NCBI GenBank assembly: GCA_023459795.1
Contig: JAEWSP010000018.1
Coordinates: 30,946-94,945, forward strand
Length of the DNA stretch: 64,000 bases
DNA from: Bacillota bacterium
GTDB taxonomy: Bacteria > Bacillota_I > Bacilli_A > RFN20 > CAG-288
Direction: 5' to 3'
Shown piece after piece: positions 62,803 through 64,000 of the stretch. The position numbers and the translations under genes were made by a program. The notes beneath the pieces were generated by a model. The model did not search any database. It had not been told where the DNA came from and saw only the letters and a program-made list of their open reading frames with translations. Positions within the stretch are counted from its first letter, which is position 1. Every line of letters starts with the position of its first letter.

Positions 62803-64000
62803 ATGGATAAAAACGAAGCAAATGAGTTCTGGGAGAAAATCTTCGGAACTGCAGAGGAAGCATATGACTATGCTTCCAGAAAAATGAAGAAGGAAGATTT
62901 CCAAAATCCTACTTCTCCTTACGGCTGGGATGTAGAACCTGTCCGTCCTTTAAGCCTAGGCGGAAGCGAGAATCAGGACAACCTGATTCCGGCTACTCTC
63001 TATGCCATTGCAAAAAGAGACGGCAAGACTTCTTTCAGCATCGGAAACCTTCATTTCGAAATGCGGAAAGGCAAAGCTTATAAAAATTTCGATCTTTATG
63101 ATGTAACGGATCATGATGCTCCGTTATCCTTGAATCCTTATGATTTATCCCAGGATAAGGATTTCCATCAGAACCGCAGGAATATTGCTTTAGGCCATCC
63201 GGAACAGGAAGAGCGGCTTCAGGCTGCTTCTTTCTCTTCTCTTCCGAATAAGGATTTCTCGACTCCGATTATCAACGATATGAATGAAACCACGAGCTTT
63301 GCCGCTCCTAAGGAAGTGACCTTGGAAGAAATACAAAAGGAACAGGAAGAAGGAGAAGAGACAACAAAAGAAACGGAAGCAGCAGAAACAGAAGAACCTG
63401 CCGAAGAAACAGAAGCGACTACGGAAGAGAACACCGAAGATAATACGGAAGAGACTACGGAAGAAAATACGGAAGCAACTACAGAAGAAACTGCCGAGAC
63501 TGTAGAAGAAACTAACGAAGAGACTGTAGAAGCAGAGCCGGAGACAGAAGCAGTGTCTCAAGAGAATTCAGAAGAGACTACGGAAGCAGAACCAGAGGCA
63601 GAAGAAGCTTCCGAAGAAACAAAAGAAGAAACAACAGAAGCCCCGGAAGAAGAAAAAATCGAAACGGAGACGGAAGAAGCAACCGAGCCTACGGAAGATA
63701 CTGCTGTCGTAGAAGAAACAAACGAAGAAAAACCGGAAGAAGAACAGCGAGAAGCTTCTTCTCCTGTTTTCTTTGCTGTCAATACTCCAACCGATTCCCT
63801 TCCGGACAACCCTAAGCCGGAAACGGATGATTCTTCTGAAAATGCAGAAACCGGGGAAGAAAAAGAAACAGAAGAAAAGACAGGAGAAGTAGCGGAAGAA
63901 GCAACAGAAGCTGTAGATGCCGCCCAGGGAGAAGACAATACGGAGCCTGCTGTAGAAGCAGAAGAAAAAACAGAAGAAGCGGAAGATAATCAGCAAGAAG
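62803..64000 (+). CDS. Partial CDS (runs off window end): degenerate HNH-like N-terminal domain fused to >250-aa Glu/Thr-rich polyacidic low-complexity region
   Basis: Strong SD AAAGAGGAGG 7 nt before the ATG at 62803. No stop codon in frame through 64000; it is absent from the ORF track only because it is open-ended. The segment GWDVEPVRPLSLGGSENQDNLIPATLYAIAKRDGK resembles the HNH consensus with catalytic His positions substituted. The tail is built of TEE/ETE repeats. Confidence 0.6.
   Translation, partial: MDKNEANEFWEKIFGTAEEAYDYASRKMKKEDFQNPTSPYGWDVEPVRPLSLGGSENQDNLIPATLYAIAKRDGKTSFSIGNLHFEMRKGKAYKNFDLYDVTDHDAPLSLNPYDLSQDKDFHQNRRNIALGHPEQEERLQAASFSSLPNKDFSTPIINDMNETTSFAAPKEVTLEEIQKEQEEGEETTKETEAAETEEPAEETEATTEENTEDNTEETTEENTEATTEETAETVEETNEETVEAEPETEAVSQENSEETTEAEPEAEEASEETKEETTEAPEEEKIETETEEATEPTEDTAVVEETNEEKPEEEQREASSPVFFAVNTPTDSLPDNPKPETDDSSENAETGEEKETEEKTGEVAEEATEAVDAAQGEDNTEPAVEAEEKTEEAEDNQQE

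Follow-up and report, generated by a model that had tools for sequence, protein, structure and literature searches.

The window, a stretch of 64,000 nucleotides, ends inside a long open reading frame that lies directly after dnaN and that we call gene X. The features around and within gene X are listed below, in window positions.

59278 to 59674, no strand: DnaA-box cluster upstream of dnaA (TTATCCACA matches), one half of an oriC-like bipartite arrangement
59744 to 61135, plus strand: dnaA (Pfam Bac_DnaA, 5.9e-52; Bac_DnaA_C, 4.7e-25)
61207 to 61323, no strand: another DnaA-box cluster, in the dnaA-dnaN interval (TTATCCACA boxes: two perfect, one with a single mismatch)
61523 to 62677, plus strand: dnaN, encoding the beta sliding clamp (three Pfam DNA_pol3_beta matches), the conserved upstream partner of gene X
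62694 to 62716, plus strand: intrinsic-terminator-like hairpin 3' of dnaN (9-bp G+C-rich stem with 5 G-C pairs, then a T-run)
62767 to 62772, plus strand: perfect -10 hexamer TATAAT with a weak -35, candidate promoter of gene X itself (read from the sequence)
62791 to 62795, plus strand: Shine-Dalgarno GGAGG, 7 nt before the ATG at 62803 (read from the sequence)
62803 to 64000, plus strand: gene X, first 399 codons (from translation; the remainder lies on an identical contig)
62803 to 63192, plus strand: N-terminal HNH (His-Me finger) domain, predicted to be catalytically dead, aa 1-130 (Cas9-type HNH fold)
62920 to 63036, plus strand: degenerate HNH core, aa 40-78 (aligned with the short, active family by hmmalign; mapping confirmed by a Cas8f-HNH alignment)
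63193 to 63327, plus strand: non-acidic linker, aa 131-175 (composition and linker alignment)
63328 to 64000, plus strand: first part of the polyanion, a low-complexity segment rich in Glu, Thr and Ala (aa 176 to about 450, by composition), which extends past the window
63190 to 63561, 63219 to 63434, 63558 to 63938 and 63568 to 63996, minus strand: antisense ORFs of 71-142 aa (ORF list)

Matches to TTATCCACA with at most one mismatch number 28 in the window, and 11 of these 28 fall inside 59278-59674; whole-window shuffles average 10.25 such matches, with a maximum of 18. The hairpin behind dnaN has a minimum free energy of -17.5 kcal/mol (z = -3.47 against shuffles). The TATAAT hexamer is missing from the consensus promoter scan because its -35 is poor. 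A first-pass annotation of this DNA had described dnaN, then a terminator, then a strongly initiated ORF, and the hairpin with its T-run, the GGAGG and the ATG at 62803 agree with that description. The start codon is also backed by the conserved N-terminus of the homologues (M-D/E/N-K...).

Reading from its ATG, gene X meets no stop codon by position 64000. An exact look-up of the DnaN protein recovered a metagenome contig (L001) that is 100% identical to the window over 1,398 nt and carries the full gene at 11281-14751 (3,471 nt, 1,156 aa). The frame is therefore open at the window end, as had been noted, and no stop lies just beyond it: a further 757 codons follow on the identical contig.

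The long antisense ORFs, called spurious in the first pass, are indeed present. Their products are Phe/Ser/Cys-rich low-complexity strings, and we regard them as artefacts because they lie opposite the GAA-rich, stop-poor coding stretch of gene X. That gene X might itself be a spurious ORF is ruled out by domain conservation across 41 clusters and by two high-confidence AF2 models. Recoding of AGG to Met is known in part of the genus UBA7642. It was considered here and ruled out: where pepT and dnaN of the window have AGG, homologues mostly carry Arg or Lys, so the standard genetic code, judged from these alignments, applies to the window. Gene X has two AGG codons, both at variable sites.

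Domain architecture of protein X

Protein X (1,156 aa, 131 kDa, pI 4.3) has no signal peptide or membrane segment. Its modules are, in order, an HNH domain, a polyanion, a heptad coiled coil (aa ~451-760, about 300 aa), a short conserved helical segment, a second and more degenerate HNH-like domain (aa ~856-945) and a domain with a predicted class III nucleotidyl cyclase fold (aa ~965-1156). Searches of Pfam, NCBIfam, PADLOC and PHROGs with X and with its segments returned noise only (NHS, ATG16, B1). The "giant polyacidic tail" proposed from the window could not be maintained: the acidic part, about 275-305 aa long, is internal and is followed by the coiled coil, HNH-like and cyclase-fold domains.

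The HNH-like segment quoted in the first pass, ...GWDVEPVRPLSLGGSENQDNLIPATLYAIAKRDGK..., corresponds to aa 41-75. An HMM built from 43 short homologues matches X at aa 1-103 (6.9e-31) and again at aa 856-937 (2.6e-11). X itself does not reach any Pfam HNH model, and 7 of 10 active relatives scanned against Pfam HNH_4 score above gathering. The beta-beta-alpha-metal fold is present in the N-terminal domain and was modelled with confidence. The GG motif and the structural asparagine N60 are kept, the D-H pair of the core has become E45-P46, and the Asn/His of the metal-binding helix has become I69. These substitutions are general in the long proteins related to X: the full D-H...N...N set is found in 0 of 41 representatives, and in the short family DH.N.N predominates. 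Forty of the 41 lack the general-base His, its substitutes being chemically unrelated (P, Y, F, L, M, E and others), and the helix Asn is lost in all 41 (I69 in X, elsewhere K, I, Y or A). Profile matches, fold, E45-P46 and I69 together bear out the earlier proposal of an HNH-like N-terminal domain with its catalytic residues replaced.

The N-terminal HNH domain also carries an extra conserved C-terminal extension, FEVRKGK.YGTF..DVTDRNHP...NQDPEYN. Direct BLASTP of the N-domain against the C-terminal third of X gave one 24-aa match (E = 0.001), and the kinship of the two HNH-like domains is clear only through the HNH profile. With mean net charges of -1.6 for the N-domain and -5.3 for the second HNH-like domain, these globular domains are mildly acidic, which does not favour DNA binding.

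Residues 176-480 contain 35.4% Glu and 13.8% Thr and carry a net charge of -103 over 305 aa (pI 4.05), in line with the extreme negative charge and Glu/Thr-rich composition reported from the window; their Pro content is 5.9%. Imperfect tandem repeats of 12, 36 and 54 nt cover 11862-12479 of the metagenome contig and correspond to the stretch from window position 63384 onwards to its end. Across the family the composition of the acidic segment is conserved and its length varies, and all long members show acidic composition and long Pro-free stretches. In the coiled coil (aa 451-760), a/d-position enrichment reaches 0.41 against 0.21 in shuffles (z = 7.8); the Pro-free run of the linker is 336 aa, and no Pro occurs in the 40-aa windows spanning aa 481-760. 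Weak matches to CCDC39, CENP-F and ATG16 were obtained in relatives. From these sequence properties we infer that X would dimerise and that its acidic segment would be disordered.

The C-terminal module was modelled with AF2 on P0001, a protein 99% identical to X with one substitution in the modelled segment (pLDDT 92.5, pTM 0.83). The module is predicted to be rigid, the second HNH-like domain packing on the cyclase-fold domain. Neither Guanylate_cyc (PF00211) nor any other Pfam family matched the cyclase-fold domain at E <= 10, and a PDB profile search with the C-terminal module at the same threshold returned no cyclase, only designed helical repeats. The invariant polar set of the cyclase-fold domain comprises Y970, K974, D1022, E1031, N1040-S-Y-R1043, R1068-H1069 and H1107. 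Position 974, which corresponds to the beta1 metal-Asp by strand register and not by residue-level superposition, is K or R in 41 of 41 members; the beta2-beta3 hairpin turn, the second metal-Asp site by the same register, varies across them.

The family of X and its gene neighbourhood

With aa 1-135 as the query, an exhaustive HMMER search recovered 205 relatives (E <= 1e-3). The long family among them comprises 41 cluster representatives (50% identity) of 832-1,327 aa with a common two-match architecture. All of the members sampled are from gut Bacilli that have not been cultured, and L005 (UBA7642), a relative, falls in GTDB order RFN20, family CAG-288. Our results show that X defines an uncharacterised family whose range, as sampled, does not go beyond these uncultured Bacilli of the gut. 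That the family was undescribed had been anticipated, and no Pfam, NCBIfam, PADLOC or PHROGs family covers X.

Shorter relatives of about 400 aa combine an active HNH, a degenerate HNH and an X-type C-terminal domain with no linker between them; P0051, taken to represent the putative ancestral form, shares the C-terminal domain with X at 2.3e-10 and was also reached by jackhmmer. Mid-size relatives have an active HNH, variable gene contexts and small ORFs next downstream. No relative was found in viral contigs scanned with the C-terminal alignment. A word-indexed protein search with the N-domain, the C-terminal third and the C-terminal alignment gave no match, which reflects the index and not absence, because exhaustive HMMER does find the family. 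Likewise, a scan of genome contigs with the single N-domain gave nothing, and relatives appeared once the query was a 6-sequence alignment.

Gene X lies directly after dnaN in 12 of 14 distinct loci and before pepT in all 14. In L013, L017 and L019 the dnaN-X-pepT genes are separated by gaps of 4-20 bp or overlap; dnaA orientation and the outer flanks differ in these loci. L008 has X-pepT without dnaN, and a PopT-like gene upstream is also conserved among closer relatives; for both reasons, part of the dnaN-X-pepT synteny could be plain inheritance. In the window's genome a terminator and a -10 element stand between dnaN and X, so co-transcription is not universal.

The usual order in Bacillota is dnaA-dnaN-yaaA(rlbA)-recF-gyrB. 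The first-pass annotation had X replacing the yaaA/recF slot. Its place directly after dnaN stands; the arrangement is not a local oddity, however, and dnaN-X-pepT is the standard at the orthologous position of the sampled relatives. Neither recF nor gyrB occurs within 8-10 kb downstream of X in any sampled locus, and searches of Pfam and NCBIfam with all parts of X returned no S4 RNA-binding (YaaA/RlbA) or RecF/SMC_N domain. Clamp-binding motifs (QL[SD]LF or QLxLxL type, permissive regular expression) are scattered in the first 12 long members, with no positional conservation. One linear motif alone is semi-conserved, F-x-[LIVM]-P-x4-I, and it is found in 11 of the 41.

Possible role of X and comparison with known systems

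The reading we prefer, tentatively and at somewhat less than an even chance, is that X is a non-nucleolytic, elongated, probably dimeric scaffold or tether, co-expressed with the sliding clamp and derived from a nuclease. An ancestral nuclease with two HNH domains would have given rise to X by losing its catalytic activity and gaining the spacer of acidic segment and coiled coil. The protein would no longer cut DNA; it would be made together with the clamp and act as an extended scaffold whose ex-nuclease modules bind nucleic acid or a partner protein. Smad MH1 and ENPP offer a precedent, having retained inactive His-Me fingers for binding (PMC5714182). The cyclase-fold domain may be a dimerisation or small-ligand-binding module, and the polyanion may be a flexible spacer that repels DNA, or it may soak up basic proteins. 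The likeliest arena would be chromosome replication or organisation, in cells that possibly have no wall. Several results count against this reading: the mild acidity of the HNH domains, the clamp-binding motifs without positional conservation, the terminator and -10 element between dnaN and X in the window's genome, and a synteny that could in part be inherited. A bolder version, which we consider unlikely, makes X a structural factor coupled to the replisome or origin in a possibly wall-less order: a polyanionic coiled-coil tether from the beta-clamp operon, exapted from a two-HNH nuclease with a cyclase-fold sensor, that takes a role in chromosome organisation or replication control held by other proteins in other Bacillota.

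About as improbable as that version, and the best-surviving alternative to the scaffold or tether, is a cytoskeletal element unrelated to replication, a coiled-coil structural protein of wall-less cells for which adjacency to dnaN gives only constitutive expression. The heptad coiled coil of about 300 aa, the long acidic low-complexity segment and HNH domains without enzymatic motifs would all suit such a protein, as would the locus that retains X-pepT without dnaN. The RFN20 family CAG-288, to which L005 (UBA7642) belongs, is predicted to be peptidoglycan-deficient, and Mycoplasma pneumoniae offers comparators in the coiled-coil ruler HMW2 and the acidic disordered P65/HMW1-type proteins (PMC8191905, PMC11940719). 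However, no sequence similarity links X to the Mycoplasma proteins, its acidic segment is not Pro-rich, and the tight dnaN-X coupling, with its 4-20 bp gaps, survives loss of the wider synteny; the window's own genome is, moreover, a presumed member of CAG-288.

With its many invariant polar residues, the cyclase-fold domain could be a genuine enzyme, in which case "pure scaffold" would be wrong. X might then be a domesticated, signalling-competent defence or stress module, an offshoot of an HNH effector whose cyclase-fold domain binds or makes a nucleotide signal and regulates a partner; the mid-size relatives, with active HNH, variable contexts and small ORFs behind them, would fit this origin. 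We hold it to be rather improbable. The K/R at the presumed beta1 metal site in every member, the unconserved beta2-beta3 turn and the lack of any Guanylate_cyc match in Pfam at E <= 10 or any match in PADLOC all speak against it, and gene X is fixed in one chromosomal slot, not in defence islands.

A further alternative builds on the first-pass idea of a DNA-mimic-like polyanion: the dead HNH would direct X to DNA or to a nuclease, and the polyanion, as a DNA mimic, would compete with DNA for the proteins that bind it, perhaps inhibiting a nuclease or restriction enzyme close to the origin. The charge density of about -0.34 per residue (-103 over 305 aa) and the fusion to a domain descended from a DNA-cutting enzyme are what suggest it. 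To our knowledge, known DNA mimics are folded. The acidic segment of X is internal, variable in length and conserved in composition only; the coiled coil, second HNH-like and cyclase-fold domains, two thirds of X, would be left unexplained; PADLOC, PHROGs and the viral contigs gave no match; and the gene occupies a core-genome position in every sampled genome. We consider this reading very unlikely. That X is still a nuclease with non-canonical residues is barely credible: the HNH fold is intact and confidently modelled with N60 and the GG motif in place, but the general-base His is missing in 40 of 41 members and the helix Asn in all.

Under the scaffold or tether reading, a whole nuclease architecture (active HNH, degenerate HNH and cyclase-fold domain) would, as the residue patterns indicate, have been turned into a large non-catalytic protein and fixed beside dnaN, among the most conserved bacterial gene neighbourhoods. 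If the link to the clamp is functional, X would be a new replication or chromosome-organisation factor in an uncultured gut lineage. There are also two warnings for annotation: homology transfer would call gene X an "HNH endonuclease", against its residue pattern, and its GAA-rich linker yields false antisense genes.

Among known systems, X is homologous over about 100 aa to the stand-alone Cas9-type HNH endonucleases (HNH_4, PF13395; His-Me finger group 1) and has the same fold. Common to both are the helix at the N-terminus (W10, D22), the core GW...P...GG...N and the beta-hairpin that follows; unlike these enzymes, the long family lacks the catalytic D-H and the helix Asn, and X is fused to about 1,000 more residues. 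With the inactive His-Me fingers of Smad MH1 and the nuclease-like domain of ENPP1-3 it has in common a lost catalytic His and a fold retained under selection, which sets a precedent for DNA- or substrate-binding roles (PMC5714182), although the sequences are unrelated, Smad and ENPP are eukaryotic proteins and the X domains are mildly acidic. Compared with class III cyclases (adenylyl/guanylyl and Pycsar pyrimidine cyclases), X has a like fold as modelled and no detectable sequence similarity; its motif set (FDG, LLNSYR, RH, HIGP) differs and, going by strand register, the hairpin Asp appears to be unconserved.

M. pneumoniae HMW2/P65 and the polar organisers HubP/FimV use a long coiled coil, a strongly acidic cytoplasmic region of low complexity, or both, as scaffold or ruler, and X has comparable segments (PMC8191905, PMC11940719, PMC12918733). 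There is no homology with these proteins, however: X lacks a membrane anchor and any LysM or FimV domain, its acidic segment is Glu/Thr-rich and not Pro-rich, and its terminal domains are ex-enzymes. Mimics of the Ocr/ArdA type present a folded carboxylate array that imitates B-DNA, whereas the segment of X is low-complexity, repeat-derived and conserved in composition only; mimicry by a disordered polyanion, which X might still exert, is a different mechanism. Unlike anti-phage defence genes (PADLOC) and PHROGs families, to which it has no match, X keeps a fixed chromosomal slot. Set against the canonical dnaA-dnaN-yaaA(rlbA)-recF-gyrB order, X takes the slot after dnaN without an S4 or RecF domain, and pepT comes next.

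The dnaN-proximal region and the full-length product

The gene 3' of dnaN, here X, was mapped together with its surroundings (window coordinates):

59278-59674, DnaA-box cluster upstream of dnaA, perfect TTATCCACA boxes at 59533 and 59566
59744-61135, + strand, dnaA (Pfam)
61207-61323, DnaA-box cluster between dnaA and dnaN, perfect TTATCCACA boxes at 61207 and 61315
61523-62677, + strand, dnaN (Pfam)
62694-62716, terminator-like hairpin 3' of dnaN, 9-bp G+C-rich stem then T-run
62767-62772, perfect TATAAT between this hairpin and X
62791-62795, GGAGG 5' of the X ATG
62803, + strand, ATG start of X, frame unbroken to the window end (64000)
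63384-64000 (11862-12479 on scaffold L001), 12-, 36- and 54-nt repeats underlying TEET/TEEN peptide repeats

DnaA-box matches across the window number 28 against 10.25 expected, and the two clusters around dnaA give a bipartite oriC-like layout that resembles Bacillus-type origins. The hairpin has a folding energy of -17.5 kcal/mol (z = -3.5). The presence of both a terminator and a -10 element suggests that, in this genome, X is transcribed partly independently of dnaN.

Looking up the exact DnaN protein sequence led to L001, a 129.8-kb ENA metagenome scaffold with 100% identity to the window across the 1,398 nt compared. On L001 the X ORF is 3,471 nt long, giving a protein of 1,156 aa (131 kDa, pI 4.3); the stop just past the window, which the first-pass annotation had named as fatal to its own reading, is absent. 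No membrane-spanning hydrophobic segment was found in full-length X. The sequence bears out that annotation on the HNH-like string, the richness in Glu and Thr, and the antisense ORFs. Those ORFs, four overlapping frames of 71-142 aa on the minus strand (63190-63996), lie opposite the GAA-rich acidic segment and encode Phe/Ser/Cys-rich strings; they are almost certainly artefacts that gene callers risk picking up.

Domains of X and their origin

Curated libraries gave no match to X. An exhaustive HMMER search with aa 1-135 against 1.84 billion representatives returned 205 relatives in three groups: long proteins (832-1,327 aa) with two matches each, at the N-terminus and near the C-terminus; proteins of ~200-700 aa with copies in tandem; and stand-alone domains of ~100-140 aa. 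Pfam HNH_4 (Cas9-type HNH) scored above gathering in 7 of the 10 active-HNH relatives scanned, which also match Cas9 and IscB HNH regions in NCBIfam, and the domain profile matched the HNH domains of Cas8f-HNH, St1Cas9 and ZRANB3 in the PDB. With an HMM of 43 short proteins, X gave two hits, at aa 1-103 (E = 6.9e-31) and aa 856-937 (E = 2.6e-11).

The active short family mostly carries D-H...N...N, where X has E45-P46...N60...I69. The N-terminal catalytic set of X is lost. Among the 41 long-family representatives none keeps the full set and one keeps the His, and residual nuclease activity is accordingly graded a less likely reading of X. Since W10, D22, W42, P49 and N60 are near-invariant and the HNH core of the long family is followed by a conserved extension peculiar to it, the domain is selected for something other than catalysis. 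After it (aa ~136-160), 11 long-family members of one subclade share a semi-conserved motif, F-x-[LIVM]-P-x4-I-x3-[VF][FL] (in the relative P0032, FVLPSLDDVKNNVL); X shows no more than a loose form of it (SFSSLPNKDFSTPII). The motif could serve to dock a partner.

The segment at aa 176-480 contains 35% Glu and 14% Thr (net -103). It is partly encoded by tandem repeats with 12-, 36- and 54-nt units that match imperfectly (68-93%), which suggests growth by slippage; P0001, 99% identical to X, shows an indel of one Glu relative to it near aa 137. Further on (aa ~451-760), Glu, Leu, Lys and Gln are abundant and heptad periodicity is strong (z = 7.8 vs shuffled controls), and the 40-aa windows that cover aa 481-760 are free of Pro. 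Every long member combines a strongly acidic linker (net -36 to -197) with a long Pro-free run (169-703 aa), both variable in length. Most of them also have a short helical stretch, L(F/L)..GG....Y...(H/N)P.W, ahead of the second HNH-like domain.

The C-terminus was modelled with the last 317 residues of P0001 in place of X. The predicted structure (pLDDT 92.5, pTM 0.83) is a single unit made of the degenerate HNH-like domain and a beta-alpha-beta-beta-alpha-beta domain with extensions, a cyclase fold for which sequence methods detected no similarity. By strand register, all 41 members have Lys/Arg at the beta1 position, where cyclases place their first metal-binding Asp, and the hairpin turn is variable; the near-invariant polar set is also different (Y970, K974, D1022, Y1029, E1031, N1040-S-Y-R1043, R1068-H1069, H1107 and G1109). 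For this reason the domain is not classed as a cyclase; it may still bind a ligand or have a non-canonical activity.

A 403-aa relative, P0051, joins without any linker an active HNH (GWNIDHI...NL...TN), a second copy that is degenerate, and the C-terminal domain known from X (E = 2.3e-10). Its locus is an unrelated context with three small ORFs 3'. More distant versions of the C-terminal domain, recognised by an LLNTY motif, occur in several other mid-size proteins. In the simplest history, X would derive from a P0051-like nuclease that lost catalysis and gained ~700 aa of acidic/coiled-coil spacer between its HNH copies. Four further relatives (P0045, P0046, P0076 and P0041) carry a small HNH_4-like domain, often in tandem arrays of 2-4 copies with D-H...N...N kept in one copy only; degenerate partner copies seem typical of this HNH subfamily in general.

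The dnaN-X-pepT neighbourhood and its hosts

Seven loci came from a pattern search in which each species was represented by one genome; all lie in MAGs of uncultured 'Bacilli', 'Firmicutes' or 'Bacillales'. Exact look-ups of six more family members added further loci. Of 14 distinct loci, 12 have X directly 3' of dnaN; in L009 a single gene is inserted between the two, and in L008 X follows a split MCRA gene. The gene directly 3' of X is pepT in 14/14 (NCBIfam PepT, 394 bits), either 4-60 bp away or overlapping X by 4 bp:

L001 14769-15962, pepT (tripeptide aminopeptidase), equivalent gene in all 14 loci

The most divergent members (~30% N-domain identity to X) occupy loci where dnaA is sometimes inverted and downstream genes differ. 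Such loci (L013, L017, L019) still have gaps of 4-20 bp or 4-bp overlaps at both junctions, which points to an operon kept together by selection. The relatives show a variable dnaA-dnaN interval (L002 2300-6200; L003 4235-6391; L013; L019): an IS66 transposase is inserted in L002, an ABC-type ATPase and an unknown gene lie in L003 and L004, and dnaA is inverted relative to dnaN in L013 and L019. The trio is unbroken in all five. The first-pass annotation had placed X in the yaaA/recF slot; within the 8-10 kb downstream, no locus has recF, yaaA or gyrB.

Compared with their counterparts in the seven loci, the window proteins show 57-64% (DnaA) and 66-72% (DnaN) identity, and on this basis the window genome probably belongs to the same order, RFN20. 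The locus L005 is from UBA7642, a GTDB genus of family CAG-288 in this order (10.1101/2021.06.18.448887); the family is predicted to be without peptidoglycan (PMC10868615). The AGG-to-Met recoding reported for part of genus UBA7642 does not apply to the window. Other window features were:

14017-14101, SRP RNA
18438-20132, dnaX
27162-28793, - strand, groEL
39484-39559, tRNA-Lys(CTT)
39560-41035, mnmE
55755-58115, + strand, 786-aa protein, lipoprotein-type N-terminus (…LLLMTSC…), HExxH motif (HETGHLLGL)
58141-59214, - strand, VCA0040/DUF368-type membrane protein, weakly similar to polyprenyl-phosphate transporter PopT

The usual layout has a rnpA...mnmE...parB block directly upstream of dnaA; here mnmE lies outside it, ~20 kb from dnaA. 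The 786-aa protein has no Pfam match, scores below cutoff for the NCBIfam M6 metalloprotease domain (78.6 vs 110.8 bits) and has a 40%-identical homologue in one relative, L005. The PopT-like gene, divergent and upstream of dnaA, is conserved among closer relatives and is curious if the lineage truly lacks peptidoglycan.

Candidate roles and comparison with known proteins

X is an abundant-looking, conserved, cytoplasmic, very acidic and elongated protein encoded with the sliding clamp, and its globular parts are two ex-nucleases and a domain of cyclase fold whose residue set is not that of a cyclase. We propose that it may act as a non-nucleolytic, probably dimeric scaffold or tether in replication or chromosome organisation. 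The C-terminal domain would serve dimerisation or small-ligand binding, and the polyanion would act as a flexible spacer or sequester basic proteins. Three points count against a DNA-related role: the globular domains are mildly acidic, no conserved clamp-binding motif was found among the 12 long members scanned, and part of the synteny may be merely inherited. The main rival is a cytoskeletal element of wall-less cells, which would be analogous to HMW2 and P65. The DNA mimic suggested by the first-pass annotation for its polyacidic tail is less likely, as is a residual signalling or defence role.

The structural and evolutionary account is solid and somewhat surprising, and the function is a proposal, hard to probe in uncultured hosts. 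The family is undescribed in the curated models, source names and literature found. By analogy, the dead HNH modules may be binding surfaces, for which Smad MH1 and ENPP offer a precedent (PMC5714182). The parts of X are of known kinds, namely a His-Me finger pseudo-enzyme, a coiled coil, an acidic low-complexity segment and a cyclase fold; what is new is their combination and the fixed dnaN-X-pepT slot.
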